From an uncultured Nitrospirota bacterium (GTDB taxonomy: Bacteria > Nitrospirota > Nitrospiria > SBBL01 > CAZOFZ01), in the NCBI GenBank assembly GCA_964579175.1, contig CAZOFZ010000001.1, positions 7,549 through 42,581 on the forward strand: a DNA stretch of 35,033 nt, written 5' to 3'. Each line of letters starts with the position of its first letter. Position 1 is the stretch's first letter. The position numbers were made by a program, and so were the translations under genes. The notes beneath the pieces are model-generated. The model did not search any database, was not told the DNA's origin, and saw only the letters and a program-made list of their open reading frames with translations. Below are positions 1,089-22,662 of this stretch, one piece after another.

Positions 1089-1450
1089 TCGAGTGCACCT
1101 TTCTTCCAGGCATAAAAATAGCCGACCAGCAGAATCGAGAGAAAAACGATCATCTCGACCAAAGCGAACAGCCCCAATTGGTTAAACGTGACGGCCCACG
1201 GATAAAGAAACACGACTTCGATATCGAACACCACAAACAGCATGGCGATCATGTAATAGCGCAACGGGAACCGCTGCCGTGCGTCGGTGGTGGGGTGCAT
1301 GCCCGACTCGTAGGGGTAGAGCTTATCGGTGTAGGGCCGCTTGGGGCGTAACAGGTTGCCCGCCAGGATCGTAACCGCGCCAAACCCAAAGGCAATGACG
1401 GAAAAAATCAGGATCGGCAGATAATTCGACGGCAACTGTGGATCGGACAC
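1079..1450 (-). CDS. nuoA: NADH-quinone oxidoreductase subunit A
   Basis: 123 aa, three hydrophobic helices. YESGM...[27 protein letters not shown] matches the NuoA/ND3 signature. 10-nt overlap with the nuoB start. Confidence 0.9.
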
Positions 1451-1608
1451 CCTTCCTCCCCCTCTCGATCGAAGAGAGGCCCATCCTAAAATAGACGTTC
1501 CGCAATGTCAATCACCCGCATAATACGTGGCCCCATACATGGCCTTGAAAATCGCTCCGGGTTCATAGTACCATCGCACTCCGTCGGTAAACTTTGGAGG
1601 AATTTCCA

Positions 1609-2418
1609 TTGAGCGCAGTCGCATTCACGGAATTACTGGAAGCGGGTGTTCACTTTGGCCACAAAGCCAATCGGTGGCACCCGAAAATGGAACGGTATAT
1701 CTTTGGACAACGCAACGGCGTTCACGTCATAGATTTGCACCAGACGGTGCAAAAGCTGTCGGTCGCCTGCGATTTCGTTCGAGACCTGGCCATGCAGGGG
1801 AAGGGCGTCCTGTTTGTCGGAACGAAACGCCAGGCACAGGAAATCGTGATGGAGCGGGCACGGGCGTGTGGCGCCTTCTATGTCAGTCACCGTTGGTGTG
1901 GCGGCATGCTTACCAATTTTTCAACGATCCGGAAAGGGATCGAAAAGCTGAAGAAACTGGAAGCGGCGCGCGAAGATGGAACGCACGAGCGGCTCCCCAA
2001 GAAAGAGGTATTCCAGCTTGAAAAAGAGCGGGAGCGCCTGGAGCAGAGCCTGGGGGGTATCAAGGAGATGTCCGACCTGCCGGCGGCGGTCTTTATCGTG
2101 GACATCATCCGGGAGAACACGGCCGTGTTGGAGGCCCGACGACTGGGCATCCCGGTTGTGGCCATGGTGGATACGAACTGCAATCCGGATCGGGTGGACT
2201 ATGTCATTCCGGGCAACGACGATGCCCTGCGTGCCATCCGTCTGGTGACCGACCGGATGGCTGCCGCCGTCCTGGAAGGGCGCGGCCTCTACGAGAAGCG
2301 CGAAAAACGGGCGCCTCTGCCAACTTCCTCTGCCAGTGCATCGGTTGTCCGGACCGATGGATCGGCCGCACCGGCCGCACCGGTGGAACCGCCCCCCTCC
2401 GGCATTAAGTGGGACTAA
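1609..2418 (+). CDS. rpsB: 30S ribosomal protein S2 (uS2)
   Basis: LLEAGVHFGHKANRWHPKM and LGIPVVAMVDTNCNPD motifs. GGAGG at 1596-1600 favours the TTG at 1609; the open frame also allows TTG at 1594. Confidence 0.95.
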   Translation: MSAVAFTELLEAGVHFGHKANRWHPKMERYIFGQRNGVHVIDLHQTVQKLSVACDFVRDLAMQGKGVLFVGTKRQAQEIVMERARACGAFYVSHRWCGGMLTNFSTIRKGIEKLKKLEAAREDGTHERLPKKEVFQLEKERERLEQSLGGIKEMSDLPAAVFIVDIIRENTAVLEARRLGIPVVAMVDTNCNPDRVDYVIPGNDDALRAIRLVTDRMAAAVLEGRGLYEKREKRAPLPTSSASASVVRTDGSAAPAAPVEPPPSGIKWD

Positions 2419-2420
2419 AA

Positions 2421-2450
2421 GTCCTGCGGACGGCGTCCCGCTTCGCGCGG
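2421..2450. repeat. copy of dispersed ~30-nt repeat (gtcctgcggacggcg core)
   Basis: My hand alignment gives 24/30 identity to 29110-29139, including a 15-nt identical core. It lies 2 nt after the rpsB stop codon. Confidence 0.75.
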
Positions 2451-2491
2451 TAATCCATCGTATTGAGAGATTGAGGATTCCGAGCATTGTG

Positions 2492-2523
2492 GGCGTCGCG
2501 TGCCCGCAGGCGTCGCGTGCCCG
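2492..2523. repeat. tandem 15-mer (ggcgtcgcgtgcccg x2, 2-nt spacer) in the rpsB-tsf spacer
   Basis: Perfect copies at 2492-2506 and 2509-2523, read directly from the sequence. Confidence 0.9.
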
Positions 2524-2593
2524 TGCCGCATGCGGTTTGGATGCTGCGGCTGGGATAGATTCTGGGATGTATTCGTAGCTACTTTGGAGTGTT

Positions 2594-3202
2594 ATGTCGC
2601 CCACCGAAATGATCAAGCTGCTCCGGGAACAGACCGGAGTGGGAATGATGGACTGCAAGACGGCCCTGGCCCAATCGGCGTGGGATATGGATAAGGCCGT
2701 TGACTTTTTACGCAAGAAGGGGCTGGCGGCTGCGGGGAAGAAGGCCGGGCGCGCAACCCAAGCCGGCGTTGTCGGGACTTACATCCACGCCGGAGGGAAG
2801 ATCGGCGTGCTCATCGAGGTGAATTGCGAGACCGATTTTGTCGGGCGCAACGTCGAGTTCCAGGACCTGGTCCGCGATCTGGCGATGCAGGTGGCAGGGG
2901 CTTCTCCCGTTCCACGCTATATTCGGCGGGAGGAGGTTGCAGCCGACATCATCGAAAAGGAAGAGGCCATTTATCTGGCGCAGGCGAAAGAGAGTAAAAA
3001 GCCGGAGGCGGTGCTCCAGAAAATTGTGGCGGGGAAGGTGGATAAGTTTCTCCAGGAAATCTGCCTGCTGGAGCAGAAGTTTATCAAGAACCCGGACATC
3101 ACCGTCCAGGAACTGGTCTCCCAAAAGATCGCGAAGCTGGGGGAGAACATCCAGGTCTGCCGGTTTACACGCTATCAACTGGGCGAGACGGGTGGGGTCT
3201 GA
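2594..3202 (+). CDS. tsf: translation elongation factor Ts (short ~200-aa form)
   Basis: N-terminal UBA-like [16 protein letters not shown], then [13 protein letters not shown] lies 6 nt upstream of the ATG. Follows rpsB as in the canonical rpsB-tsf operon. Confidence 0.95.
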
Positions 3203-3209
3203 CCGAATC

Positions 3210-3950
3210 ATGGCGACATCCAAGTACAGGCGGGTCTTGCTGAAGGTCAGCGGGGAGGTCTTGGCCGGAGAGCAGCACTATGGCATTGACCCCAAGATGC
3301 TGGATACGATCTCGGACGGGATCAAGGAGATGGTCACGCTGGGGGCGGAAACGGCCGTCGTCATCGGCGGCGGGAACATCTTCCGTGGCGTTGCGGGGAG
3401 TGCCGCCGGCATGGAGCGCTCTTCGGCGGACTATATGGGAATGCTGGCCACAGTGCTCAACGCCCTGGCGCTTCAGAATGTGCTGGAACAAAAAGGGGTC
3501 GTCACACGGGTGCAGTCGGCCATCGAGATGAGGTCGCTGGCCGAAATTTACATCCGTCGGAAGGCGATCCGACACCTGGAAAAGGGGCGGGTCCTGATTC
3601 TGGCCGCGGGGACCGGGAACCCCTATTTTTCGACCGACACTGCGGCCGTTCTGCGTGCCATGGAGATCGGCGCCGACCTCATCTTGAAGGGAACCAGGGT
3701 GGACGGCGTATTCGACCGCGACCCGGTCAAATATCCCGATGCCGTGCAGTTTCGCACCCTGACCTTTTTTCAAGTGATCGAAAAGCGGCTGGAAATCATG
3801 GATTCGACGGCGATGACCCTCTGCATGGACAACAACCTCCGACTCATGGTGTTCAACATCAAAGAGACCGCCAATATCAAGCGGGTGCTCCTGGGCGAAC
3901 ATGTCGGGACGCTCGTCACGAAGGAGGAAGCGGATGTTCTCGGACATTAA
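3210..3950 (+). CDS. pyrH: UMP kinase
   Basis: ORF 2838..3950 trimmed to the ATG at 3210 ([16 protein letters not shown]). Motifs [19 protein letters not shown] and [12 protein letters not shown]. Confidence 0.95.
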
Positions 3951-4491
3951 GACGCGGATGCAGGGAAAGATGGATCGTGCCATCGAAAATCTGATGACGG
4001 GTCTGTCCGGCATTCGGACGGGGCGCGCCTCCCTGATTCCGTTCGACGGCGTTCAGGTGAACTACTACGGGACGCAGACCCCGCTCAAGCAGATGGCCAG
4101 TCTCTCCATCCCCGACAGCCGGTCCGTGCTCATCCAGCCCTGGGACCTCACGCAGATTCCGTCCATCGAAAAGGCGATTCAGACTTCCGGGCTGGGTCTG
4201 ACGCCATCGAACGACGGAAAGGTCATCCGGGTCGGCATCCCCCCCCTGACCCAGGAACGGAGAAAAGAACTGACAAAGTGGGTGGGGAAACTGGGCGAAG
4301 AGTGTAAAGTCGCGATTCGGAACGTCCGCCGCGAAGTCAACGACGAGGTGAAGGCCCTGCAGAAAAAAGGGGATCTGTCGGAAGACGACGCGCGGCGCCT
4401 CCACGACGAGGGGCAGAAAATCACCGACCAGATGATCGCGAAGGTGGACGAGGCCCTCCGCAAGAAAGAAAAAGAAATCATGGAAGTTTAA
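3934..4491 (+). CDS. frr: ribosome recycling factor
   Basis: ATG at 3934 preceded by AAGGAGG at 3921-3927. IRTGRASL and [14 protein letters not shown] motifs. 17-nt overlap with pyrH. Confidence 0.95.
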
Positions 4492-4495
4492 CGAA

Positions 4496-4523
4496 CTCAC
4501 GGGACGGACCGTGGGTTCTTTCC
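4496..4523 (+). terminator. possible intrinsic terminator after frr
   Basis: About 7-bp stem (ctcacgg / ccgtggg, one G-U pair) with a 6-nt loop, followed by ttctttcc. Weak U-tract. Confidence 0.3.
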
Positions 4524-4592
4524 CCCTCCCTCGTTCGAGCGCCCTCCCAATCCGCATCGCACGTCCACATCGTCCGCATAAGCCATAGAGGC

Positions 4593-5756
4593 ATGTCGTT
4601 GCGCTCCGCCGGTAAGATAGAGATTGATCTGGCCGCGCTCTCGCACAATCTTCGGCAGGTTCGGATTCGCCACAAAAACATCCTGGCCGTCGTCAAGGCA
4701 GATGCCTATGGGCATGGCGCGGTGGAGGTGGCGCGCGCCCTGACCCGAGACGCCGGGGTGTTCATGCTCGGCGTGGCCTATTTGGACGAGGCGATCTCGC
4801 TTCGGTCGGCGGGTGTTGCCCTCCCCATCCTGTTGATGACGGGCGCCCCGGCGGACCAGATTCCCGAAATCGTCCACCATCGGATTACCCCCGTCCTCTT
4901 TGACGCCCAATCGTTGACCCTGCTGGGCCAATATCTTGAGACCCACCGCCAGACGATGAACGTCCATATCAAAGTGGACACGGGCATGGGGCGGTTGGGG
5001 GTGTCGGTGGCCGACGCGCCCGATCTGATTCGGAAGGCCCATGCGCAATATGGTCTCCGCGTGGAAGGCCTCCTGACCCACCTTGCGGATGCCGATCTCC
5101 AGGACCTCTCCTTTGCCAGAGAGCAGATCTCTCGCTTTGAGGGTCTGCGATCTCTGTTGGCACGCGACGGTCTCCCGATCCGCCATTGTCATTTTGCCAA
5201 TAGCGCTGCTATCATGCGTCTCGACACGTTGGGCGCGGCGGATACGGATTTGGTGCGGCCCGGGCTGATGCTCTACGGTTATGTGTCGGGGGGCGGCGGC
5301 CGTTCGCTCCGTCCGGTCATGCGGGTGCGGGCCCGCGTACTGGCGATTCGCAATTTTCCGGCGGGGACGGGCATCGGCTATGGACACACCTATACGACTT
5401 CTCGGGAAAGCCGGATTGCCGTGACCTCCATCGGTTATGCCGACGGCTATCCGCTCGCCCTCTCCAACAAAGGGGTTATGCTGGCCGGCGGGCGTCGTGT
5501 GCCGGTGGTGGGCCGGGTCTGCATGGACATGACGATGATTGACGTCACCGCCGTCCCCTCCCTCCAGGTCGGGGATTGGGTGACGGTCATCGGGGCGGAA
5601 GGGGACGCATTCGTCGGCGCGGATGAACTGGCCCGTTTGTGTGAGACGATCCCCTACGAGATTCTTTGCGGCGTCGGCAGCCGCATCCCAAGACACTACG
5701 TTTCCTCCTCTCCATCTTCAGGAGATTCCCTAGGAGATTCTCCCGCGGAGTTCTGA
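4593..5756 (+). CDS. alr: alanine racemase
   Basis: PLP-lysine motif AVVKADAYGHG, plus GYADGYP and GRVCMDM. Confidence 0.92.
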   Translation: MSLRSAGKIEIDLAALSHNLRQVRIRHKNILAVVKADAYGHGAVEVARALTRDAGVFMLGVAYLDEAISLRSAGVALPILLMTGAPADQIPEIVHHRITPVLFDAQSLTLLGQYLETHRQTMNVHIKVDTGMGRLGVSVADAPDLIRKAHAQYGLRVEGLLTHLADADLQDLSFAREQISRFEGLRSLLARDGLPIRHCHFANSAAIMRLDTLGAADTDLVRPGLMLYGYVSGGGGRSLRPVMRVRARVLAIRNFPAGTGIGYGHTYTTSRESRIAVTSIGYADGYPLALSNKGVMLAGGRRVPVVGRVCMDMTMIDVTAVPSLQVGDWVTVIGAEGDAFVGADELARLCETIPYEILCGVGSRIPRHYVSSSPSSGDSLGDSPAEF

Positions 5757-5765
5757 CAGGCACCC

Positions 5766-6533
5766 ATGCGCTGGATTCGGACGATCGGGGCCTGGGGTAT
5801 CCGGTTTTTGACGGAACTGGGGTCCATCGGACTTCTCTTCGGACAAGCCTCCATGGGGGTTGTACGCCGTCCATTCGATCTGCGCGGCATTGCACGCCAG
5901 ATGGACGCCGTGGGGGTCGGCTCCATTCCGGTGGTGCTGATTACGGCCAGTTTTACCGGCATGGTGCTGGCGCTCCAGAGTCACACGGGATTCAAACGCT
6001 TCAACGCGGAGGGGCTGGTCGGCACGGTCGTGGCCCTCTCCATGACGCGGGAGCTGGGGCCGGTGCTGACCGGTCTCATCGTGGCCGGACGCGCGGGGGC
6101 CGCCATGGCCGCCGAACTGGGCACGATGAAAGTCACCGAACAGGTGGACGCCCTCGCCACCCTGGGCGTCCATCCGGTGAAATACCTCATCACGCCGCGC
6201 CTGCTGGCCGGGCTGCTCATGCTCCCCGTCCTGACCATCCTGGCCGACCTCGTCGGCATCATGGGGGGCTATTTCCTGTCGGTGCAACTCCTGGACGCCA
6301 ACCCCGAAGTCTATCTCCGCAGGACGCAACAATATCTGGAGGTTGCGGACATCTTCGGAGGCATCCTGAAAGCGGCCGTTTTCGGGATTCTCATTGCCAC
6401 CGTAAGCTGCTACAAAGGCTTCCAGGCCGAGGGTGGCGCGGAGGGGGTCGGGAAGGCCACAACCGGCGCCGTGGTCCTTTCCGAAATGCTCATCCTGATT
6501 TCCGATTATTTCCTGACGGCCCTGCTATTCTGA
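5766..6533 (+). CDS. mlaE: MlaE/YrbE-family ABC transporter permease
   Basis: 255 aa, multi-TM. TRELGPVLTGLIVAGRAGAAMAAELGTMKVTEQVDAL is the MlaE family signature. Confidence 0.85.
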   Translation: MRWIRTIGAWGIRFLTELGSIGLLFGQASMGVVRRPFDLRGIARQMDAVGVGSIPVVLITASFTGMVLALQSHTGFKRFNAEGLVGTVVALSMTRELGPVLTGLIVAGRAGAAMAAELGTMKVTEQVDALATLGVHPVKYLITPRLLAGLLMLPVLTILADLVGIMGGYFLSVQLLDANPEVYLRRTQQYLEVADIFGGILKAAVFGILIATVSCYKGFQAEGGAEGVGKATTGAVVLSEMLILISDYFLTALLF

Positions 6534-6573
6534 ACGTTTTCAATTTTGTCGGGCCGTCTTATCATTGCGGGCC

Positions 6574-7866
6574 ATGACCCACTATGAACAGGCCATTGAT
6601 TATCTGTATCGTTTACAGTGGCACGGCATTCGGCCCGGCCTGGAACGGATGGCGCAGCTCCTTGCGGCACTCGGCAATCCCCACCGGAAATTCAAATCCG
6701 TTCATGTCGGTGGGACAAACGGCAAGGGCTCCACATCCGCCCTGCTGGCCTCCGTTCTGCAACGGGGCGGGTATCGGGTCGGCCTCTATACCTCTCCCCA
6801 TCTGATCGATTTTTCCGAACGCATCCGCATCGGCGGCGTCCCCATTTCCGAATCGCAACTGGTCCACCTCACGCAAATGCTCCGGGGGCACATCGAGGCG
6901 CTGGGGCTTGCCGATCGGATCACCTTTTTCGAGTTGACGACGGCGATGGCCTTCGTCTATTTTGCGGAGTCGAACGTGGATTGGGCCGTCGTCGAGGTGG
7001 GACTGGGAGGACGGTTCGATGCCACCAATCTGCTGGCCCCCGAAGTCAGCGCCATTACCCATATTGACCTGGACCATGAACAGTTTCTGGGCGCCACGTT
7101 GCTGGACATTGCCCGGGAGAAGGCCGGCATTATTAAAATGGAGACGCCCATCGTTACCGGCGCTTCGCAACCGGAAGTCCTGGGCTACTTCGCCGAAGTG
7201 GCGCAATCGAAACGGGCTCCGCTGCTGCGGCTGGGGCATGAAATGACCGTGCAGGGGGACGCGCCCCACGATTTTCGCTACCGGGGGATTCGGACCTGGG
7301 ACGTTGAATGTCCGCTCCCGGGGCGTCACCAGATTTCAAACTGCGCCGTTGCGTTGGGGGCGATCGAACAACTGCGGCAAAAAGGGGTGCCGCTCGCCGA
7401 CGCGGACATCCTGGAAGGGATCCGAACGACCCGCTGGCCCGGACGGCTCTCGACGGTGCGGCAACGTCCGCTGATTCTCCTGGATGGGGCACATAATCCT
7501 GCGGGTGCGCGGGCACTGGCCGCCCACCTGACGGAGGTGGACCCAAAGCGGCGCGGCGTCCATTGGATGATTGTCGGCATGATGCGGGATAAAGATGGAT
7601 CAGGTATTCTGGCCCCCCTGATTTCCTGGGCGGACGCGGTGGTCTTGACCCGCCCGAACGTGGAACGGGGTGCCGATCCCGCGCAGTGGATTCCATCCCT
7701 GAAAAACCCTCCCGCGGCCATCCTGCCCCGCCTGCCGGACGCCATTGCCCACGTCGAATTGCGCCTCAGGCCGGAGGACACGCTGCTTATCACCGGATCG
7801 CTGTATATCGTGGGCGAAGCGGCCGCCTACTTCGAAGGACGCACCCCCTCGCTTCCGAGAGGATAG
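6574..7866 (+). CDS. folC: bifunctional folylpolyglutamate synthase / dihydrofolate synthase
   Basis: Mur-ligase P-loop HVGGTNGKGST and the later DGAHNP motif. ATG at 6574; an in-frame TTG at 6565 is also possible. Confidence 0.9.
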   Translation: MTHYEQAIDYLYRLQWHGIRPGLERMAQLLAALGNPHRKFKSVHVGGTNGKGSTSALLASVLQRGGYRVGLYTSPHLIDFSERIRIGGVPISESQLVHLTQMLRGHIEALGLADRITFFELTTAMAFVYFAESNVDWAVVEVGLGGRFDATNLLAPEVSAITHIDLDHEQFLGATLLDIAREKAGIIKMETPIVTGASQPEVLGYFAEVAQSKRAPLLRLGHEMTVQGDAPHDFRYRGIRTWDVECPLPGRHQISNCAVALGAIEQLRQKGVPLADADILEGIRTTRWPGRLSTVRQRPLILLDGAHNPAGARALAAHLTEVDPKRRGVHWMIVGMMRDKDGSGILAPLISWADAVVLTRPNVERGADPAQWIPSLKNPPAAILPRLPDAIAHVELRLRPEDTLLITGSLYIVGEAAAYFEGRTPSLPRG

Positions 7867-7869
7867 CCG

Positions 7870-9894
7870 ATGCCATCTGGGAGGGGATTATGCCGTGGAT
7901 GGAGGGCGTTCTGCCTGTTCGTTTTCCCGCTTCTTCCCGGCATTGTCCACGCACAATTGTCTCCGGAGATGCAGGAGGCGCCGATTCATCTGACGGCGGA
8001 CCGGCTGGAGCATCGGGCGGACGTCTATGATGCCGAGGGATCCGTCGTTGTCACGCAGGGACCTTTGCGCCTTTCGACCGATCGGCTTCGCTTCGACGCA
8101 CGAAGCGGGGATATGGAGATTCGCGGGGGGCTGCAACTGACGGAGGGGGAGAATCGTCTTTCCGCCGAGGAGGCCGATCTGAATCTCCACACACAGCGGG
8201 GCTGGCTGACACAGGGGCATCTGTTTCTGGCACGGGAGCACTATTTTCTGGAAGGGGAACGGATCGAGCGGCTGGGGCCGGATCGCTATCTCCTCCAGAC
8301 CGCCTCGTTCACCCCCTGCGACTGCGATCCGGACTGGCAAATTCGGGCGCGGCAGTTGCGCCTGGACGCGGATCGTCTGGTGGCGCGGGGGGTGCGCTTC
8401 CGGGCGGGCGGCCTGCCGGTCCTCTATCTCCCTTATTTCGCCTATCCCACCCAGGCCCGTGCCACGGGGTTCCTGACCCCCCATCTGGGCTACAGCTCTC
8501 GGGACGGTTTTCGATATCGGCAGGACTTCTTTCTCACGATCGGGCCGAGTCGGGATGCGACCTTTTCCTGGAACGATCGCGGTGCGACGGGCCGGGGAGG
8601 GGGGATCGAATATCGCTATCGGCTGTCAGAGCGGGATGGCGGGGAGATGCAAGTGGACTTTCTGCGCGACGACGAACAACAAACCGACCGGCTCGACCTG
8701 CTCTATCGGCACACCCAGCAGTTCGGCCAGCAGACGCGGCTGATGCTGGATTTGCGGTATCTTCATCCGCGCGACAACCTGCGCATCCTGGGCGACGACG
8801 TGGCGCAACGTAGTCGCACCTCCATCCTCTCCGACGCGGTTTTGAGCTATCACGGGGAGCGGGTTGCGGCCTATTTGCTCGCGCAATACGCGGCGGACAT
8901 AAACGACCGGAATCGAGATTTGGCCCGACTTCCGGAGATCGGTCTGCAACTCCCTTCGCGCCCGGTGGGACCGCTTCGGGGCCGGTTCGACGGCCGCATC
9001 GCACGATTTTTTCGGCCCGCCGAGGCTGGTGTACGGGGCACACGGATAGACCTCTATCCACACGTTTCGAAACCGATTACGTGGGGGGGGATCTGGACCC
9101 CCTGGGTCGGGTTGCGCGCGGTGGGGTACCACGCCCAGACGGATGGCACCTCCCTCACCCGAAACATTGTCCCGGCGGGTCTCCATTGGGAGACGCGGCT
9201 TACTCGCCGTGGGGCGCGGTCTCTGCATGAGGTGACGCCGATGCTCCGATACGGATATATCGCCGCAGAGGAGGCCGACGTGCCGCAGTATGACGATCTG
9301 GACCGGATTGCGGATCGCAACGCGCTGACGGCCGTGCTGGAACAACGGTGGTTGGCGGCGGACGCGACCGAACGCGGATGGCTCCGCCTAAGCCGCAGTT
9401 ATCACCTTCGGCCCCATCACGGGCCTTCCGATCTGCGCGGGGAGATGCGCGTCTCTCCGCGGCCCGGTTTCTGGTTGGAAGTGGACTCTTTTTTCGGGAC
9501 AAATCGAATGGCGCTCTGGAACGCCGACCTGCGTCTGAATGCCCGATCCGACTTCGATCTGTCCCTGGGGCATCGTTACGCGCGGGAGGGGACGATCCCA
9601 AAACGGGGCGATCTTTTCGATCCGCTCTATTTGGGGGATTCCGCACCGACCCCGCGCGTTTCGCACCTCACCTACCAAGTCGCGCTGGATGTCGGTCCGG
9701 GCGTGCGCGTCAGCAGCCGGGCCGATCTGGATATGGATCAGGGGACCTTTCCCGAAAGAAAGTATGCCCTCCAGTACGATCAAGCCTGCTGGGGGATGAC
9801 ATTCACCTACACGGACCTCCCGGACCGTAACGTCTTCTCCTTCTCCGTCCGCCTGAAAGGCCTGGGCGAGCGTACATCCACGCTTCCGGAGTAG
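7870..9894 (+). CDS. lptD: LPS-assembly outer-membrane protein LptD (OstA family)
   Basis: Signal peptide (...LLPGIVHAQ), OstA-like N-terminal beta-jellyroll segment (IHLTADRLEH...GSVVVTQG...LRLSTDRLRFD), then a long Tyr/Arg/Asp-rich beta-barrel region. Confidence 0.8.
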   Translation: MPSGRGLCRGWRAFCLFVFPLLPGIVHAQLSPEMQEAPIHLTADRLEHRADVYDAEGSVVVTQGPLRLSTDRLRFDARSGDMEIRGGLQLTEGENRLSAEEADLNLHTQRGWLTQGHLFLAREHYFLEGERIERLGPDRYLLQTASFTPCDCDPDWQIRARQLRLDADRLVARGVRFRAGGLPVLYLPYFAYPTQARATGFLTPHLGYSSRDGFRYRQDFFLTIGPSRDATFSWNDRGATGRGGGIEYRYRLSERDGGEMQVDFLRDDEQQTDRLDLLYRHTQQFGQQTRLMLDLRYLHPRDNLRILGDDVAQRSRTSILSDAVLSYHGERVAAYLLAQYAADINDRNRDLARLPEIGLQLPSRPVGPLRGRFDGRIARFFRPAEAGVRGTRIDLYPHVSKPITWGGIWTPWVGLRAVGYHAQTDGTSLTRNIVPAGLHWETRLTRRGARSLHEVTPMLRYGYIAAEEADVPQYDDLDRIADRNALTAVLEQRWLAADATERGWLRLSRSYHLRPHHGPSDLRGEMRVSPRPGFWLEVDSFFGTNRMALWNADLRLNARSDFDLSLGHRYAREGTIPKRGDLFDPLYLGDSAPTPRVSHLTYQVALDVGPGVRVSSRADLDMDQGTFPERKYALQYDQACWGMTFTYTDLPDRNVFSFSVRLKGLGERTSTLPE

Positions 9895-14124: not shown

Positions 14125-15657
14125 CTACACTGCGGACATTTTACGATCCAGGCTGCGGTATTGAACCGCCTCGGCCACATCCGCCGTTTCGATCTCTGCC
14201 CGCTGCGCAAGATCGGCAATCGAACGGGCGACTTTGAGCACACGGGTATACGCACGCGCGGAAAGACCCAGCTTGTCCATGGCCGATTCCAGTAGTTTTC
14301 GGGCCGGTTCTCCGATTTTACAGATTTTTTTGATGTGTCGTGGACGCAATTGGGCGTTGCAGCGGACACCCTCCCCCTTGTAGCGCTCCGACTGAAACAA
14401 GCGAGCGGCCAACACCCGCTCCCGCATCGCCTCGGAGTTTTCCTCCCGCGTCGAAAGGGTCAAGTCTCGAAAGGGGACGGCGGGGACCTCGATGTGCAGA
14501 TCGATCCGGTCCAGCAACGGCCCGGAAATACGGGAACGGTAGCGTTGAATCGCCATCGGCGTGCAGACGCAATTGCGCGTCGGATCGGAAAGATGTCCAC
14601 ACGGACAGGGATTCATGGCCGACAGCAGAACGAACCGGGCGGGAAAAGTCAGCGAAGCGGTGGCCCGCGCAATGGTCACGACGCCCTCCTCCAGGGGTTG
14701 TCGCAGGACTTCCAGGACATTTCGGCGAAACTCCGGCAACTCGTCCAAAAACAGCACCCCATTGTGCGCCAGGCTGACCTCGCCGGGTCGGGGCACCGGG
14801 CCACCGCCGATGAGACCGGCATCCGAAATCGTGTGATGGGGCGCGCGAAACGGGCGTGTCACGATCAAGGGGCTTGCGAGACAACCCAGGGCGCTGTGCA
14901 CCTGCGTGGTTTCCAGCGATTCTTCAAAACACATCGGGGGAAGAATGGTGGGGAAGCGCCTGGCCAGCATCGTCTTACCCGACCCCGGAGGGCCCACCAT
15001 CAGGAGGTTGTGACCCCCCGCCGCTGCAATCTCCAGCGCCCGTTTTGCGTGGGCCTGCCCCCGAACGTCGCAAAAATCATCCACGAATGAAGCGGATTCC
15101 GGGGTCTGACGCGAGAGATCGGCGCGAATCGGGTGGAGGGTTTCCTGGCCATTGAAAAAGGCCACCACCTGTGGCAAGGTTTCGATCCCCAGGACCTCGA
15201 TGCCGTCCACAACGGACGCCTCGGCGCCGTTTTCGGAGGGGACCAGGATGCCGCGCATCCCGCTCTTTTTCGCCAGAATGGCCATCGGGAGCGCCCCCCT
15301 CACGGGCTTGACCCGTCCATCCAGCGAGAGCTCTCCCACAATCAGGTAGTGCGCAAGACGATCGCCACCCACGACGCCGTCCGCTGCCAACACCCCCAAC
15401 GCCATCGGAAGGTCAAAGGCCGCCCCTTCTTTTTTGAGGTCGGCGGGGGCCAGATTGATCGTGATTTTTTTGACGGGACATTGGAAGCCGCTATTCTTCA
15501 GGGCGGCGCGCAGGCGGTCTTTGCTCTCTCTGACGGCCAGGTCGGGGAGACCGACAATGGACAGGTAGGGGAGCCCTTGTGAGAGATCGATTTCGACTTC
15601 GATCCGATGCGCTTCAATCCCGTATAACGCCGCGCTGAATATCCTGGAGAGCGACAT
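14125..15657 (-). CDS. comM: YifB/ComM-family Mg-chelatase-like ATPase
   Basis: N-terminal Lon-protease-like domain (IEVEIDLSQGLPYLSIVGLPD..VRESKDR), AAA+ Walker A MVGPPGSGKT, Walker B VLFLDELPEF, zinc-finger-like CPCGH. Confidence 0.92.
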   Translation of the reverse strand: MSLSRIFSAALYGIEAHRIEVEIDLSQGLPYLSIVGLPDLAVRESKDRLRAALKNSGFQCPVKKITINLAPADLKKEGAAFDLPMALGVLAADGVVGGDRLAHYLIVGELSLDGRVKPVRGALPMAILAKKSGMRGILVPSENGAEASVVDGIEVLGIETLPQVVAFFNGQETLHPIRADLSRQTPESASFVDDFCDVRGQAHAKRALEIAAAGGHNLLMVGPPGSGKTMLARRFPTILPPMCFEESLETTQVHSALGCLASPLIVTRPFRAPHHTISDAGLIGGGPVPRPGEVSLAHNGVLFLDELPEFRRNVLEVLRQPLEEGVVTIARATASLTFPARFVLLSAMNPCPCGHLSDPTRNCVCTPMAIQRYRSRISGPLLDRIDLHIEVPAVPFRDLTLSTREENSEAMRERVLAARLFQSERYKGEGVRCNAQLRPRHIKKICKIGEPARKLLESAMDKLGLSARAYTRVLKVARSIADLAQRAEIETADVAEAVQYRSLDRKMSAV

Positions 15658-15767: not shown

Positions 15768-16133
15768 TTAGGATGGTGTGTTTCTTAAAAACGAGGGGGT
15801 CCCGTTTTGACTGTTTTCTTCAATCCAGCGATAGAGGCCGGGTTGCAGGCCGAAGTGGAGATCGGGTGCGAACTGGACCCCATAGGAACTCCCCTCCGGA
15901 CGGCGGTGAACGACGACAACGCGCCCGCTCACCATTTCCTGGAAGGTATTCCCGGCGTAACTGCCGGAAATCCGGAGATTGACGCGGTGTCCCAGGCTCA
16001 ACGCCTTTTCGGCGTAGAGGTGCAAACCGCCCATGCTGACGTTGCTGATCGTTACCGACACGGGGGGTGTCTCCGTCGTCAGCTCGGCCGTTCCAACGAA
16101 CGGAATGCGGCGATATTTTCTTTTCTGCTGCAT
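15768..16133 (-). CDS. PilZ-domain (c-di-GMP-binding) protein
   Basis: ORF trimmed to the ATG at 16133. RKYRR (RxxxR) followed by NVSMGG (D/NxSxxG), the two PilZ c-di-GMP motifs. Confidence 0.75.
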   Translation of the reverse strand: MQQKRKYRRIPFVGTAELTTETPPVSVTISNVSMGGLHLYAEKALSLGHRVNLRISGSYAGNTFQEMVSGRVVVVHRRPEGSSYGVQFAPDLHFGLQPGLYRWIEENSQNGTPSFLRNTPS

Positions 16134-16253
16134 CGTGTCGGCAGTATAACAAAACGGACTGCAATGCACAATGGCCGTTGGAGGGGTAATGGTGGGAGGG
16201 AAGATGACGCGGCAGGAAGCGGTATCGGCGTTGGCGTTTGAGCGAGCACGACC

Positions 16254-16282
16254 TTGACTTATGCCGCCCCCCCCGATAGATT
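16254..16282 (+). promoter_or_regulatory. sigma70-like promoter upstream of the ureohydrolase gene
   Basis: TTGACT (16254-16259), 17-nt spacer, TAGATT (16277-16282). GGGAGG at 16299-16304 precedes the TTG start at 16309. Confidence 0.35.
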
Positions 16283-16308
16283 CAGGCGTCTGACGCGCGG
16301 GAGGCACT

Positions 16309-17232
16309 TTGGGAGCGATCACGTCATTTGAACAAAACGGGTGGTTTGGTCTAAACCGGCCGGACGCGATGTCTCCCGATATTGCAATCGTCGGTATTCC
16401 GTATGATGGCGCGGTCTGTTACCGGCGTGGCGCGGCGCTGGGGCCGGATCGCATACGTGAAGTCTCGGCGCAGATTCCTCCGGTGATCGAAACCGGCGAA
16501 GTGCTGGATCGCCTCCTCATCCGTGACGCGGGGAACCTCCCGTTTGGCACCGACTTCGCGGCCTCATTCTCCCAGATCGAGGACGAAATCGCGCGCCATG
16601 CGGCGACCGCTTTCGTGTTGACGTTGGGGGGGGACCATTCGATTGCCATTCCCGTACATCGCGCCTTTGGGAGGGTGGCCTCGCGGCCGATCGGGCTGAT
16701 CTACATTGACGCGCACACCGATCTCTCCGATCGCTTCGACGGCTCCCCCTATTCCCACGCCTGTCCGCTGCGCCGCACCCTGGAGACGGCGCGATTCTCT
16801 CCCGAAAATACCCTTCTGGTGGCCACCCGCTGTTTCGAACGGGCCGGGTTGGAATATATCCGGGAACATCGGATGACGGTGTTTTCTGCAGACGACATTG
16901 CGCAACGCGGCATGCAGGCGGTGGGTCGGGACATCCTCGCGCAGTGCGATGGTCTGTCGAACGTCTATCTCTCCGTTGACATTGACGCCCTGGACCCGGC
17001 CTATGCCCCCGGCACCGGCATTCCGGACGCGGGCGGGATCAGCACCCGCGAATTGATCGCCCTCCTCCGGATGTTACACCCGCTGCCGGTGATTGGCGCG
17101 GACCTCGTGGAAGTCGCGCCCCCTTTGGACCACGCCGACATCACCAGTTTTGCCGCGGTCAAACTGATCATGGAGCTCTTCGGGCTCGTGCAGAGAAGGA
17201 AATTACGGCAGCAACTTTCCAGGGTGCGCTAA
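16309..17232 (+). CDS. speB: arginase-family ureohydrolase (agmatinase / guanidinobutyrase-like)
   Basis: Mn-binding motifs GGDHSIA, IYIDAHTDL and SVDIDALDPAYAPGTG. Confidence 0.85.
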   Translation: MGAITSFEQNGWFGLNRPDAMSPDIAIVGIPYDGAVCYRRGAALGPDRIREVSAQIPPVIETGEVLDRLLIRDAGNLPFGTDFAASFSQIEDEIARHAATAFVLTLGGDHSIAIPVHRAFGRVASRPIGLIYIDAHTDLSDRFDGSPYSHACPLRRTLETARFSPENTLLVATRCFERAGLEYIREHRMTVFSADDIAQRGMQAVGRDILAQCDGLSNVYLSVDIDALDPAYAPGTGIPDAGGISTRELIALLRMLHPLPVIGADLVEVAPPLDHADITSFAAVKLIMELFGLVQRRKLRQQLSRVR

Positions 17233-18560: not shown

Positions 18561-18573
18561 AGTCTTTTGCGAG

Positions 18574-21345
18574 GTGACGATGGTCACGACGTGGGATTGG
18601 AGTGGCGCGCGATGGTGGAAATTCGACTTCCACACCCACACGCCAAAATCGGATGACTACGCAGCGAAAGCACTATCGGCGCAAGATTGGGTACTGAACT
18701 ACATGCGTGCGGGGTTGGACTGTGTTGCGATCACGGACCACAACTCCGGCGAATGGATTGACGAACTGAAAAAGGCGGAGGCTGCCCTCGCAGAGGAGAA
18801 ACACGCGGAGTACCGCAAGCTCTACCTCTTTCCCGGAGTCGAATTGTCCGTAAACGGGGGATTCCACGTTCTCGCAATTCTCGATTCCTTCAAAACGTCG
18901 CACGATATTGCCGGGCTGATCGGCGCGTGCGGCTATCACGGGACACCGGGAACGAGTGACGCCGTCACAGAAAAATCATTCGTGCAAGTCGTTGACGAGA
19001 TCGTGAAATTGGGCGGCATTGCCATTCCAGCACATGTCGATCAGCCCAGTGGGTTGTTCAAACTTCAGGGAAACACACTGGAGCAGGCGGTTCGGTGTGA
19101 GCACGTTTTTGCCATGGAGGTGGTCAATCCGAACGTCGGGAAACCGCAGATTTACACCAACGCAAAGCTGTCATGGACGGAGGTTCTTGGTTCGGACGCG
19201 CACCATCCATCCGGCAGCACAGGACAACAATATCCCGGCAGCCGATTCACTTGGGTAAAGATGGGAACGCCCAGCATCGAGGGACTGCGATTGGCGCTTC
19301 TCGACGGGCCGCTGTCGGTCTCGCGCTCCGATGCGACGACGGGCAATCCCAATGACCATGCCGAAATGGTTATTGAGTCCGTTGAAATATCGAAGGCGCG
19401 TTATATGGGCAGGAAGAAGCCTTACGAGCTGCGCTTGAACCCGTGGATGAACGCGGTCATCGGTGGACGAGGAACGGGAAAATCTACCTTAGTCGAGTTT
19501 CTACGCTTGGTCTTGCGGCGGGAAGAGGAGTTAGAGGCGTTAACGGATGTTGTACTGAAATCCGACTTTGAGAAATACAAAACCGTTGATGCAGACCGAG
19601 GCGAAAGTGGCTTGTTAACCCAAGATGCTGAAATCCGTGTCGTGTATCGGAAAGGTGGCGTTTCCTATCGTATCCAATGGAGTCCGAGCGGATTGTTGGA
19701 CCCAATTCAGAGACAGACCGCGAACGGATGGGTTCGGGACGAAGGGGATATCCGCCAACGATTCCCTGTCCGGATGTACAGTCAGAAGCAGGTGTTTCAA
19801 CTGGCCAGCACTCCGCTCGCCTTGCTGCATATCATCAACGACGCTCCCGAGCTGGATTATGCGTCCTGGAAAAAGAGTCTGAACGCCCAAGAAAGCCAGT
19901 ACCTCTCATTGCGAGCCAAGATTCGAGAGATCGAAACGGGGTTGGCGGAGGAATCACGGCTCAAAGGTGAACTGGAAGACGTAAAACGTAAACTTGTGGT
20001 GTTTGAGCAGTCGGGACATGCAGACATCCTCAAGACCCTTCAAAAGAGGCGTCGGCAGCTTCAGGCGGTCGAAGCGTGGGAGGAGCGATTAGGCAACGGG
20101 GGACACCGCTTGCGTGAAATGGCTGAAGAAATAAGCCCAGAAACATTGGACGATGCGACTTTCGACCGGGCCGAGACGGAAGACGCCCGTCTACTTGAAT
20201 TGGCTCGGGATGTCCACGAATCAATTGGCAAGATCGCCGGACAAATCAAGGAGTTGGCCAGGCAGTCGGACACGGTTCTTGTAGAGTGGCGCGGAAAGAA
20301 GGACGGATCCTCATGGAAGGCGGCGGTAGATACCGCCACGGGTGACTACGAAAGCCTGCTAAAACGATTAACGGACGAAGGGGTGGCCGACCCATCGGGA
20401 TATGGTCTCCTCGTCCAACGCCGTCAAGTGATCGAAAAACAACTGGGTGAGTTGGAGGAACGTAAAAAACAAAGCGTGATCCTGAAAATACAGGCGGACG
20501 GTGTGTTGGAGTGTGTCGCCGTGCTGCGACAAGCAATTACACGTAAACGAGGGGAGTTTCTGGACAAAGTGCTCAAAGACAATCGGTATGTTCGGATATC
20601 CGTTGTTCCCTATGGCTCAAAGGAAACGGTCGAGACAGAATTGCGTCGTTTAATTCAACGAGATTCTGGGGGGTTCGAGAAGGATATTGGCAGACCGGAG
20701 CCGGATGGCGAAGGTTTGCTTGGCAAGATTTACAAGAATAATCCGACTGACGCCGAGCTGGAAAAGAGATTGGTCGCCCTGAAGCACAACCTCCGAGAAA
20801 TCGCGTGTAACCCGCAGCAAGCCGACGTTTCTGATCGGCGTTTTGCAGTGCACGTTTCCAAACTTTCACCCGAGACATTGGATCGGCTGGACCTCTGGTT
20901 TCCGGATGACTCCCTGAAGATCGAGTACAGCACATCTGCGGACCAGGGGGTATTCCGTCCCATTCACGAAGGATCGCCGGGCCAAAAGACAGCTGCTCTG
21001 CTGGCCTTCCTGCTTTCCTACGGGGAGGAACCACTTATTCTGGATCAACCGGAAGACGACCTCGACAACCACTTAATTTACGATTTGATCGTCACCCAAC
21101 TGCGCGACGTCAAACGACGCCGACAGGTGATCGTCGTCACGCACAACGCAAACATTGTCGTGAACGGCGACGCCGAGTACGTGGTCGCCCTGACCGCACG
21201 TGGCAGACAATCTCAAGTGGAGGCAGACGGTTCCCTTCAGGACAAGGCCGTTCGGCAGACCATCTGCAACGTCATGGAAGGGGGAGAAAAGGCGTTTGAG
21301 CAACGCTACCGCCGCATTGCATTGGAGGGGCGACATGTACGATAG
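18574..21345 (+). CDS. PHP-domain phosphoesterase fused to an SMC/ABC-like ATPase with coiled-coil insert (Ppl-like candidate defence protein)
   Basis: PHP metal motifs: FHTHT (aa 19-23), ITDHN, GVE, FHVL, PAHVD, SDAHH. Walker A GGRGTGKST (nt 19462-19488). About 250 aa of charged heptad-like sequence. Signature-like SPGQK (20974-20988), Walker B LILDQPEDDLD (21034-21066), VIVVTHNANI. GTG at 18574, or ATG at 18580 after GAGG. Confidence 0.8.
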   Translation: MTMVTTWDWSGARWWKFDFHTHTPKSDDYAAKALSAQDWVLNYMRAGLDCVAITDHNSGEWIDELKKAEAALAEEKHAEYRKLYLFPGVELSVNGGFHVLAILDSFKTSHDIAGLIGACGYHGTPGTSDAVTEKSFVQVVDEIVKLGGIAIPAHVDQPSGLFKLQGNTLEQAVRCEHVFAMEVVNPNVGKPQIYTNAKLSWTEVLGSDAHHPSGSTGQQYPGSRFTWVKMGTPSIEGLRLALLDGPLSVSRSDATTGNPNDHAEMVIESVEISKARYMGRKKPYELRLNPWMNAVIGGRGTGKSTLVEFLRLVLRREEELEALTDVVLKSDFEKYKTVDADRGESGLLTQDAEIRVVYRKGGVSYRIQWSPSGLLDPIQRQTANGWVRDEGDIRQRFPVRMYSQKQVFQLASTPLALLHIINDAPELDYASWKKSLNAQESQYLSLRAKIREIETGLAEESRLKGELEDVKRKLVVFEQSGHADILKTLQKRRRQLQAVEAWEERLGNGGHRLREMAEEISPETLDDATFDRAETEDARLLELARDVHESIGKIAGQIKELARQSDTVLVEWRGKKDGSSWKAAVDTATGDYESLLKRLTDEGVADPSGYGLLVQRRQVIEKQLGELEERKKQSVILKIQADGVLECVAVLRQAITRKRGEFLDKVLKDNRYVRISVVPYGSKETVETELRRLIQRDSGGFEKDIGRPEPDGEGLLGKIYKNNPTDAELEKRLVALKHNLREIACNPQQADVSDRRFAVHVSKLSPETLDRLDLWFPDDSLKIEYSTSADQGVFRPIHEGSPGQKTAALLAFLLSYGEEPLILDQPEDDLDNHLIYDLIVTQLRDVKRRRQVIVVTHNANIVVNGDAEYVVALTARGRQSQVEADGSLQDKAVRQTICNVMEGGEKAFEQRYRRIALEGRHVR

Positions 21346-22588
21346 CCCAGAGGCATTACTCCGACAGATTCGTTTGGGAGAAGACACGTCGCTCGAGTTA
21401 AAGGCCGTTTACTTCAAGGGCGACCGAGTTTCCGATCCCAAGAAGGAAAGCCTTGCCGACGAAATCGCGGCCATTGCCAACGCGCACGACGGCGTCCTGG
21501 TTTTTGGTGTCAACGACAAGACGCGGGAGATCGACGGCATTCCCGTGGAGAAACTGGAGTCGGTGGAACGTTACGTTTTTGAGGCTTGTACTGACAGCAT
21601 CAAGCCATCCGTGATGTTTCGCTCATTTCGCATGGAAATACCCGATAGCGCCGGGACGCCCCGGGCCATTCTCAAGGTGGAGATCCCCCGCAGTCTCTTT
21701 GTTCACAAAAGTCCCGGCGGCTACTTCTCCCGTCAAGGGAGTTCGAAGCGTGAGATGCCGTCGGACTATCTTGTGCGATTGCTCCAGCAGCGTAGCCAAG
21801 CCCGGTTAATCCGCTTCGAGGAGCAAGTCGTTCCCGGAACAAGCCCAACCGATTTGTCCGAGACGCTTTGGCGGCGGTACACCACGCGCTCTGCAGAACC
21901 CGCTGACATTGTGCTTCTGAAGCGTAATCTCTTGTCGAAAGAAGAGAATGGGGACATTCGATGCTCGGTCGCTGGAATTTTATTGTGCTGTGAAAACCCA
22001 GAACGATTTCTGTCGAGCGCGTTTATCGCAGCCGTTCGTTATCGAGGCACGCGACAGGATTCGAATTATCAAATGGATGCGCAAACGATCGTCGGCCCGC
22101 TCGACGCGCAAATCCATCAGGCCATGCTGTTTCTTGCGCGGAATCAGTCCGTGACCGCGATCAAGGTGCCTCATCGCGTCGAGACCCCACAATTCAGCAA
22201 ACGCGCAGTCTTCGAAGCCATCGTCAACGCCGTCGCCCACCGCGACTACTCTATTGCAGGGTCGAAGATCCGGTTTTTCATGTTCGACGACCGGCTCGAA
22301 ATCTATTCCCCCGGCGCACTGCCGAACACCCTAACCGTCGAGAGTCTGGCGCTCCGGCAGGCGACCCGGAATGAACTGATTACGAGTTTACTGGCGGAGA
22401 CCCCTATTGCCGAAGCCGTTGGTAACGTTGGACGATCCTCCTTCATGGAGAAGCGGGGCGACGGGGTTCCCATTATTCTCCGTGAGAGTACAGAGTTGAG
22501 CGGTCAAGAGCCGAAATATCGGCTGATCGATGATAGCGAATTGCTTCTGACTATTTGGGCGGCAAGACAAGGCTCTGTTTCAGAGTGA
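21335..22588 (+). CDS. Schlafen/AlbA_2-domain + HATPase_c_4-domain protein (often annotated as RecG-like putative regulator)
   Basis: ATG at 21335 preceded by GGAGGGG, overlapping the upstream stop by 11 nt. N-terminal E..SLELK....LADEIAAIANAHDGVLVFGVND..REIDGI (AlbA_2). C-terminal VFEAIVNAVAHRDYSIAGSKIRFFMFDDRLEIYSPGALPN...RNELITSLL...EKRGDGVPII (HATPase_c_4). Confidence 0.8.
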   Translation: MYDSPEALLRQIRLGEDTSLELKAVYFKGDRVSDPKKESLADEIAAIANAHDGVLVFGVNDKTREIDGIPVEKLESVERYVFEACTDSIKPSVMFRSFRMEIPDSAGTPRAILKVEIPRSLFVHKSPGGYFSRQGSSKREMPSDYLVRLLQQRSQARLIRFEEQVVPGTSPTDLSETLWRRYTTRSAEPADIVLLKRNLLSKEENGDIRCSVAGILLCCENPERFLSSAFIAAVRYRGTRQDSNYQMDAQTIVGPLDAQIHQAMLFLARNQSVTAIKVPHRVETPQFSKRAVFEAIVNAVAHRDYSIAGSKIRFFMFDDRLEIYSPGALPNTLTVESLALRQATRNELITSLLAETPIAEAVGNVGRSSFMEKRGDGVPIILRESTELSGQEPKYRLIDDSELLLTIWAARQGSVSE

Positions 22589-22632: not shown

Positions 22633-22662
22633 TTGACATGGATTCTGGGGGGCTTGTATGAT
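22633..22662 (+). promoter_or_regulatory. sigma70-like promoter for the OFOR operon
   Basis: TTGACA (22633-22638), 18-nt spacer, TATGAT (22657-22662), 30 nt upstream of the ATG at 22693, which has a GGAGGGGG SD. Confidence 0.45.

Follow-up and report, generated by a model that had tools for sequence, protein, structure and literature searches.

Ppl was reportedly described in 2020, by Gao and colleagues, as a single-gene anti-phage system. The Escherichia coli protein is a single-stranded DNA 3'-5' exonuclease, which nucleotide depletion releases, as do the 3'-OH ends made by phage homing endonucleases (2026 review, PMC12904381). A second described locus, the temperature restriction locus (TRL) trlR-trlF-trlG of Photorhabdus laumondii, gave the TrlF family its name (Hapeshi et al. 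2020, PMC7554251), and recent studies have shown that bacterial Schlafen proteins cleave transfer RNA (tRNA) in phage defence through an Ex4(E/D)xK motif (PMC13056530). Here we analyse two overlapping forward-strand genes, a trlF-like gene (gene 1, 18580-21345, 921 aa) and a trlG-like gene (gene 2, 21335-22588, 417 aa), located in a 35,033-nucleotide stretch of DNA from an uncultured Nitrospirota bacterium (contig CAZOFZ010000001.1, positions 7,549 to 42,581; hereafter the window, to which all coordinates refer unless another locus is named). Judged by profiles and alignments, the window pair belongs to the trlF-trlG operon family, as a distant member. We favour, with a probability of roughly 0.55, the reading that TrlF-TrlG is a mobile anti-phage or anti-plasmid module in which TrlG would be an ATP-gated tRNase and TrlF a DNA sensor and exonuclease.

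In P. laumondii, TrlF is annotated as a histidinol phosphatase and TrlG is mis-annotated as "recG", and TrlG comprises an AlbA_2 domain (residues 14-128) and a HATPase_c_4 domain (residues 298-365) (PMC7554251). The window shows the same layout, a gene for a PHP phosphoesterase and ABC ATPase followed by an overlapping gene for an AlbA_2 and HATPase_c_4 protein. Gene 1 reaches 632.1 bits against NCBIfam NF045780, 'TrlF family AAA-like ATPase' (cut-off 350), with residues 11-915 aligned to profile positions 2-943 of 944. An earlier sequence-only reading of the window had known of no described system joining a Ppl-like PHP-ATPase to a Schlafen/HATPase_c_4 partner; this does not stand, as the P. 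laumondii trlF-trlG pair is exactly that (PMC7554251) and gene 1 passes the TrlF model. The pairing is thus already known, from the TRL work of 2020 and from the TrlF entry in NCBIfam, and each of its two proteins comes from a family with known links to defence. The resemblance is nevertheless remote. Gene 1 is 27-40% identical to the TrlF of the Yersinia ruckeri reference plasmid pYR3 (875 aa, with an overlapping 382-aa partner), in the PHP domain and the ATPase C-lobe only, while gene 2 is 27% identical to the pYR3 partner over 360 residues (E=5e-30) and 27% identical to Vibrio parahaemolyticus TrlG (E=4e-29). The second glutamate of the Ex4ExK motif is a glutamine in the reference clade and a glutamate in the clade of the window. 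In the literature that we searched, no paper makes a connection between TRL and Ppl or Schlafens.

The mechanically called open reading frames run from 18574 to 21345 (plus strand, GTG start, 923 aa) and from 21200 to 22588 (plus strand). For gene 1, the ATG at 18580 is the likely start in preference to the GTG at 18574: GAGG lies upstream of it at 18570-18573, and the database copy (P0001) is 921 aa long. Residues are numbered here on the 921-aa protein, so that H20 and H22 of the sequence-only reading, which counted 923 residues, are H18 and H20. A 462-aa version of gene 2 starting at GTG 21200 was rejected, since the homologues, which open with MFDS or MYDS, and the database copy (P0121, likewise 417 aa) begin at the ATG, 21335 in the window. 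The coupling junction occupies 21324-21345 on the plus strand: the Shine-Dalgarno (SD) sequence GGAGGGG of gene 2 (21324-21330) sits within gene 1, followed by the gene-2 ATG (21335) and the gene-1 stop TAG (21343-21345). Direct reading of the letters gives an overlap of 11 nt, ATGTACGATAG, at 21335-21345. In the relatives the junction reads GGAGG-N5-6-ATGTTTGA, again with the SD inside trlF, and because it is kept in this way the overlap is no chance event; translational coupling, which had been proposed from the overlap and the internal SD, is borne out by this conservation. A TGA-to-CGA change, which the window shares with L001, the genome relative nearest to it (L numbers denote retrieved loci), lengthens the overlap from 8 to 11 nt. 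The GC content is 0.54-0.56 in the cassette and 0.60-0.62 in its flanks, a drop that we count in favour of horizontal acquisition, which the sequence suggests.

Gene 1 encodes a fusion of a PHP phosphoesterase with an SMC/Rad50-like ABC ATPase. The PHP metal-dependent phosphoesterase domain (aa 1-262, 18580-19365, plus strand) carries the ligands H18, H20, D53, H54, E88, H96, H152, D206 and H208, all nine of which are at least 99% conserved among 74 gene-1 homologues. The Walker A motif GGRGTGKST (aa 295-303, 19462-19488, plus strand) is invariant in the alignment, with K301 at 100%. The ATPase C-lobe (aa 761-921, 20860-21342, plus strand) holds the SPGQK signature, the Walker B motif LILDQPEDDLD and the H-loop THNAN, motifs that are invariant as well; K301, S799-G801, D822/E825 and H855 are at least 99% conserved in the same set. 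The two ATPase lobes are separated by a long helical, coiled-coil-like insert (aa 427-664, 19858-20571, plus strand), which is the least conserved region of the protein, and for which AlphaFold2 (AF2) places helices at residues 427-455, 457-477, 480-505, 507-518, 533-576, 578-599 and 607-664. The AF2 model as a whole (mean predicted local distance difference test score, pLDDT, of 77) displays a PHP barrel and a split ABC head, together with long helices that span about 240 residues. Its best Foldseek matches in the PDB are the JetC, SMC, Rad50, MukB and RecN heads with their coiled coils, and it also matches the PHP domain of RNase AM (7ug9, E=1.3e-5); a PDB sequence search with gene 1 gave no match. 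Among Pfam models, AAA_21 scores above its cut-off (43 bits, residues 763-862), SMC_N and AAA_23 do not reach theirs, and PHP obtains 15.7 bits, below the 26.4 required; the CehA/McbA metallohydrolase model also matches (E=1e-13). The complete PHP motif set and the ABC/SMC-type ATPase split by a coiled-coil-like insert, which the sequence-only reading had recognised, are in agreement with both the conservation and the structural models.

The same reading had pointed to Ppl as a PHP and ATPase gene validated in defence, which holds for the family but not for the name. The PADLOC Ppl model (PDLC02208) matches gene 1 over its full length (E=7.9e-146, residues 11-915 against profile positions 4-892 of 894), and the architecture is the same, so that a PHP exonuclease and NTPase logic is presumably common to both. 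However, the NCBIfam model "anti-phage protein Ppl" (NF042955) gives gene 1 only 598.9 bits against an equivalog cut-off of 1000, and eight diverse members of the gene-1 clade behave alike, none of the eight reaching the Ppl cut-off and all eight passing that of TrlF. The proteins named "anti-phage protein Ppl" by the Prokaryotic Genome Annotation Pipeline, which are found on IncF and other enterobacterial plasmids, share about 30% identity with gene 1 and are each encoded by a solo gene, whereas in the gene-1 clade 81% of loci show coupling to TrlG. On these profile scores and identities, gene 1 is not to be classed as a Ppl in the strict sense.

Gene 2 combines a Schlafen (AlbA_2) nuclease domain (aa 16-141, 21380-21757, plus strand) with a GHKL-type ATPase domain of the PF13749 family (aa ~285-401, 22187-22537, plus strand), as the sequence-only reading had proposed, and both Pfam models score well over their cut-offs: SLFN_AlbA_2 with 60.5 bits at residues 16-141 and HATPase_c_4 (PF13749) with 69.1 bits at residues 309-401. 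The Schlafen domain bears the motif E16-x4-E21-x-K23 and D61, and in 58 TrlG sequences E16 and K23 are present in 58/58, D61 in 57/58 and E21 in 56/58. The GHKL domain bears the N-box E294/N298, HRDY (302-305), SPGxLPN (325-331), RN (345-346) and RGxG (374-377), with E294 and N298 both in 58/58 and the motifs overall in 57-58 of the 58. Such conservation indicates that the active sites of both proteins, TrlF-like and TrlG-like, are under selection. The AF2 model of gene 2, built on a 41-sequence alignment of proteins 72-85% identical to it, has a pLDDT of 56, and its Schlafen domain alone is usable. This confident N-terminal domain matches the nuclease domains of SLFN13, SLFN14, SLFN5, SLFN11 and SLFN12 (E down to 5e-6) as well as the SAMD9 tRNase domain, while a PDB sequence search with gene 2 returned 3lmm as the sole match.

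No PADLOC model recognises gene 2 as a system component; its only match, to the SLFN-pAgo model (E=1.7e-17), aligns residues 38-400 with model positions 55-428 of 1121, the N-terminal part. This match arises because SLFN-pAgos bear an N-terminal Schlafen and PF13749 GHKL "Schlatpase" supradomain, which in RzAgo, the SLFN-pAgo studied in this respect, tetramerises on ATP and cleaves tRNA; the supradomain is present in 58.6% of 103,533 prokaryotic Schlafen proteins, most of them small and stand-alone (bioRxiv 10.64898/2026.05.29.728809). By its domain composition, gene 2 is such a stand-alone Schlafen-GHKL protein, or Schlatpase. It shares with SLFN-pAgos and with the HisKinase class of bacterial Schlafens the two domains in identical order, the Ex4ExK motif and the GHKL glutamate and asparagine. 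It differs in having no fused Argonaute, NACHT, Ig-like or helix-turn-helix sensor, since it ends after the GHKL domain, and the putative sensor, if any, would in TrlF-TrlG be the separate upstream gene. Distant Schlafen-GHKL homologues (26-30% identical), annotated as 'RecG-like helicase', are encoded by temperate actinophages, for example gp31 of Mycobacterium phage Squirty (NC_026588.1, 26372-27457) and a Gordonia phage gp38 cluster (KX557273.1, 30339-31385). Viral contigs yielded no relatives of gene 2. A phage origin of the cassette was rejected, the phage records holding only distant Schlatpases and C-terminal ATPase fragments.

The genetics of the Photorhabdus locus bear directly on the role of TrlG. 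Among spontaneous P. laumondii mutants that grow at 36 °C, 16 different alleles were found in trlG and none in trlF, although trlF is the larger gene; deletion of the whole operon equally restores growth at 36 °C, and a shift to higher temperature induces the operon (PMC7554251). We mapped the mutations onto gene 2 through V. parahaemolyticus TrlG (P0322), the numbering of the Y. ruckeri pYR3 TrlG being different. The Vibrio protein bears the wild-type residue at 13/13 mutated Photorhabdus positions, and the numbering is therefore transferable to gene 2. In the Schlafen domain, S16N falls on T18, within the loop of the Ex4(E/Q)xK motif, V35I and A36V on A45 and A46, and R80H on K90, which adjoins the invariant P91. 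In the GHKL domain, P318R/L falls on P330 of the SPGxLPN motif, N335D on the invariant N346 and G354V in the RGxGxG loop (residues 374-379). The mapped alleles hit the Schlafen site as well as the GHKL nucleotide site, and growth arrest therefore needs both. TrlF is about 2.3 times the size of TrlG, and if mutations in both genes rescued growth equally well, the chance of finding none of the 16 alleles in trlF would be about 0.31^16. We therefore infer that in Photorhabdus TrlG is the growth-arresting effector, able to act without TrlF once the operon is induced.

To assess how often the two genes occur together, we retrieved 80 genome loci with an alignment of 25 gene-1 homologues and took as informative those with a full-length homologue and at least 1300 nt downstream (69/80). 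The lineages of the 80 loci include Acidobacteriota, Latescibacterota, Rhodothermales, Myxococcota, Desulfobacterota, Chloroflexota, Poribacteria, Verrucomicrobia, Spirochaetes and Proteobacteria. In 56 of the 69 informative loci (81%), a homologue of gene 2 with 44-75% identity starts at the gene-1 stop codon. Adding two plasmid loci retrieved through gene 2 gives a set of 58 pairs, of which 34 overlap by 8 nt and 8 by 11 nt. Mean pairwise identity is 0.53 for gene 2 and 0.45 for gene 1, so that gene 2 is the more conserved of the two, and the distance matrices of the two proteins, like their pairwise identities, correlate (Mantel r=0.85, a value reached by 0/999 permutations). In a neighbour-joining tree the paired state is widespread, outgroup included; there is one tight solo clade, with members in E. 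coli, Hafnia, Pectobacterium, Desulfobulbus and Spirochaetales, and a few sporadic solo copies. The composition of the solo clade suggests that it may have spread recently and horizontally among very distant hosts. One of its members, on the chromosome of E. coli ACN002 (L083, 6998-9751), has the pao operon on one side and a prophage tail/pinE region on the other, and its DNA is 91% identical to the Hafnia copy. Apparent pseudogenes were seen in four loci (L010, 8001-8906; L018, 10753-11595; L034, 3104-3790; L057, 10804-11925), one being a TrlF frame broken after 301 codons and three being TrlG homologues cut to 228-373 aa. The survey thus answers the question that the sequence-only reading had raised about the conservation of the pairing, with the partner standing immediately at the stop codon across phyla.

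That reading had also asked whether such pairs fall in defence islands. Elsewhere than in the window they often do: in the relatives the pair is repeatedly nested in methylation-based defence operons, with a 4-nt overlap with the preceding methyltransferase gene. In BREX operons it lies between PglXI and the SNF2 helicase or PglZ (L007-L009, L035, L053, L088-L092), and in Hma operons between HmaB and HmaC (L084-L087, L011); a solo TrlF fills the same BREX slot in L012 and L026-L028. When 83 same-strand immediate neighbours were scanned with PADLOC, 13 were of PglX type (8 PglXI and 5 of another PglX model), 9 were PglZ (two models, 5 and 4), 4 were BrxH and 4 were DrmD. By this arrangement, the BREX and Hma positions resemble a slot into which accessory defence genes are repeatedly inserted. 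The gene order can be read in L084 (7032-16928), where an Hma operon runs HmaA, PDC-S02, HmaB, the pair and HmaC, and in L090 (3080-16451) and L092 (1548-18452), where a BREX type-3-like operon runs BrxC, PglXI, the pair, SNF2 and PglZ. L092 holds in addition a second, different Schlafen-GHKL protein (5331-6731, 466 aa, without PADLOC match) between BrxC and PglX. Plasmid copies of the pair adjoin either a relaxase and a PLD endonuclease or transposases and a HEPN gene, and the closest relative, with 77% identity, adjoins a ResIII helicase and a TnsA-like gene. One plasmid pair, a mesophilic orthologue, comes from B. thailandensis (L081, 5150-9269).

The neighbours in the window itself are metabolic, with arginase-family and class-III aminotransferase genes on one side and a CO_dh/POR oxidoreductase operon on the other. 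A scan of the window detected no homologue of PglX, PglZ, BrxC or Hma; no direct or inverted repeats flank the cassette, and no tRNA was found in the window. Between the stop codon of the aminotransferase and the ATG of trlF there are 19 nt, at which no terminator-like site was predicted. Downstream, the 105-nt spacer after gene 2 holds a promoter-like site matching at 11/12 positions (TTGACA-18-TATGAT, 22633-22662), so that the oxidoreductase operon appears to have its own promoter. The mechanically called start of its first gene, which encodes a CO_dh-like subunit, is TTG 22555, but the probable one is ATG 22694, preceded by GGAGGGGG. Further upstream, a ComM-like Mg-chelatase-family ATPase (14125-15657, minus strand) and a PilZ-domain protein (15768-16322, minus strand) are unrelated to the cassette.

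A coiled-coil-split ATPase head working with a metal-dependent nuclease is also found in Wadjet (JetC/JetD), Lamassu (LmuB), Rad50-Mre11 and RecN, and an ABC/OLD-type ATPase with a nuclease, embedded in defence loci, in PARIS (AriA/AriB) and Gabija (GajA/GajB); the PARIS effector, too, targets tRNA. Nevertheless, none of the hidden Markov models of Lamassu, Wadjet, Rad50-Mre11, PARIS or Gabija matches gene 1 as a whole protein, the matches (E from 1e-10 to 1e-5) covering ATPase motifs only. The matches to the SMC/Rad50-type machines are weak and partial (LmuB 1e-10, Rad50 3e-8), the TrlF nuclease is a PHP domain fused in cis and not Mre11, Toprim or Cap4, and the TrlF coiled coil is short, with about 240 residues. 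Those to PARIS and Gabija stay at the level of motifs (AriA 1e-10, GajA 1e-5), the effector fold is Toprim there and Schlafen here, and there is no sign of common ancestry beyond the ABC fold. Membership in MADS (mad3, E=1.6e-16) or in PDC-M49 was rejected, as these are partial ATPase or PHP matches and gene 2 has no match among the MADS or PDC models.

In the mechanism that we propose, binding of ATP by the GHKL domain of TrlG would lead to oligomerisation and so assemble the active Schlafen RNase, which would cleave tRNA, stop translation and arrest growth. The ATPase head and coiled coil of TrlF would sense foreign DNA, through free 3' ends and nucleotide status, and its PHP domain would degrade DNA. 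TrlF may also license TrlG, a signalling step to which we give a lower probability than to the module as a whole. By extension, the window copy may serve in defence as well.

Several observations weigh against this reading. For TrlFG operons, the one phenotype on record is the temperature-dependent arrest of growth in P. laumondii, not phage defence (PMC7554251). No trlF mutation was recovered in Photorhabdus, and TrlF is thus dispensable there for the toxicity of TrlG. Two bacterial Schlafens of the HisKinase type, tested alone, gave no defence. The genes of the window clade are known from sequence alone, the window copy lies outside any defence island and has no trlR, the small regulator gene that precedes trlF in the TRL operon, given the 19 nt that separate it from the upstream aminotransferase gene, and residues 266-381 of the gene 2 model have a pLDDT below 50, which leaves the GHKL half unreliable and without a usable structural match. 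Other enterobacterial genes of the TrlF family are solo, beside Abi, toxin-antitoxin or prophage genes. Seen from the side of gene 2, moreover, the association is looser: a metagenome scan gave 80 loci with relatives 46-75% identical, and among the 74 with at least 300 nt upstream a TrlF C-terminus abuts the gene-2 relative in just 28, with 46 being without TrlF. The genes that precede these relatives instead are SNF2 helicases (L164, L169), a HerA-like ATPase and unknown genes (L099), a DrmA-like helicase (L109), a second Schlatpase (L149) or metabolic genes (L118, L133), and proteins with and without a TrlF partner are interspersed in the TrlG tree.

An obligate two-subunit system is not established, because TrlF lies upstream of only 28 of the 74 gene-2 relatives. 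The dependence is one-sided, the Schlatpase being portable and having no need of TrlF, while the TrlF clade is rarely found without a Schlatpase. Individual loci illustrate the variety of arrangements. In L108, the last ~30 codons of TrlF (3919-4008) stand directly upstream of an intact TrlG homologue, which suggests that TrlF may have been lost there and TrlG retained. L149 has tandem Schlafen-GHKL genes (2814-3974 and 4001-5230) without TrlF, and in L172 the order is inverted, with an SNF2 helicase (1122-3974), a TrlG-like gene (~3980-5197) and a distant TrlF-like gene (5477-8069, 25-38% identical).

This looseness would suit a view in which each of the two genes is a defence system of its own, one a Ppl-like exonuclease and the other a stand-alone Schlafen-GHKL tRNase, adjacent and co-inherited but without functional interaction. 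Validated Ppl is indeed a single gene, solo on IncF and other plasmids, solo TrlF clades exist, relatives of gene 2 occur without TrlF in most of the loci sampled from that side and in several other contexts, and plain co-inheritance would also give correlated trees. In Enterococcus, furthermore, a stand-alone Schlafen protein is by itself a potent defence (PMC13552941). We nevertheless consider independence unlikely, since four fifths of the TrlF clade, over more than 10 phyla, keep TrlG at an overlapping start and stop with an internal SD, since unrelated neighbours in defence islands normally reshuffle much faster, and since the pair moves together into BREX, Hma, plasmid and metabolic contexts. 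A role of the pair as accessory subunits of BREX type 3 or type 1, or of Hma, the window copy then being a stranded remnant, would account for its position between PglX and PglZ or HmaB and HmaC and for the 4-nt overlap with the methyltransferase gene. It is very improbable, as most loci, including the window, the plasmids and Photorhabdus, have no BREX or Hma genes nearby, both window genes are intact with conserved motifs, and the pglX-pglZ slot is known as a site of unrelated, embedded defence genes.

The phenotype in Photorhabdus admits two further explanations. The pair could be a physiological regulator that stops growth when cells meet heat, stationary phase or a similar stress, in keeping with temperature restriction as the sole experimental phenotype and induction of the operon on upshift (PMC7554251), and with the place of the window copy among metabolic genes, tightly behind an aminotransferase gene. 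We hold this to be improbable in view of the patchy, horizontally transferred distribution and low GC content, the copies found repeatedly inside BREX and Hma operons and on plasmids, and the validated anti-phage members of both protein families; arrest on overexpression would moreover be typical of autoimmunity by an abortive-infection effector. The pair could also resemble a toxin-antitoxin system, with TrlG as toxin restrained by TrlF, in which trlF mutants would be lethal and hence never recovered. The 16 alleles in trlG with none in the ~2.3-fold larger trlF, the deletability of the entire operon and the translational coupling of the upstream gene to a downstream toxin-like gene would all follow. 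Yet close TrlG relatives, 46-74% identical, are often encoded without TrlF, L108 keeps an intact TrlG beside a 30-residue remnant of TrlF, and TrlF, unlike an antitoxin, retains full nuclease and ATPase motifs, which together make such a restraint still more improbable than a stress regulator.

Our work links three lines of research, those on Ppl and on the TRL locus (both 2020) and that on Schlatpases and bacterial Schlafens (2026). Its value lies in this link, in the asymmetry of the pairing and in the nesting data, the window copy adding only its membership in the family. Defence catalogues, namely the PADLOC Ppl model and the Ppl literature, treat the family as a single gene, whereas here about four of five copies are coupled to a Schlafen-GHKL gene, and the Photorhabdus genetics attribute growth arrest to the Schlafen partner and not to the nuclease-ATPase. 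A tentative extension of the module reading, which we regard as possible but not probable, is that TrlF supplies the missing sensor for the most common class of bacterial Schlafens: as an SMC/Rad50-like PHP nuclease, it would respond to the DNA ends of phages or to depletion of nucleotides by licensing the coupled Schlafen-GHKL tRNase. If this is true, one module would both attack the DNA of the invader and halt translation, and the inactivity of HisKinase-type Schlafens tested alone would be explained. The published 'temperature restriction' of Photorhabdus would then be autoimmunity of a mobile defence module, as our analysis suggests. Taken together, the linked studies provide a testable model for the control of stand-alone Schlafen-GHKL proteins, the commonest prokaryotic Schlafen architecture and one without a demonstrated trigger.

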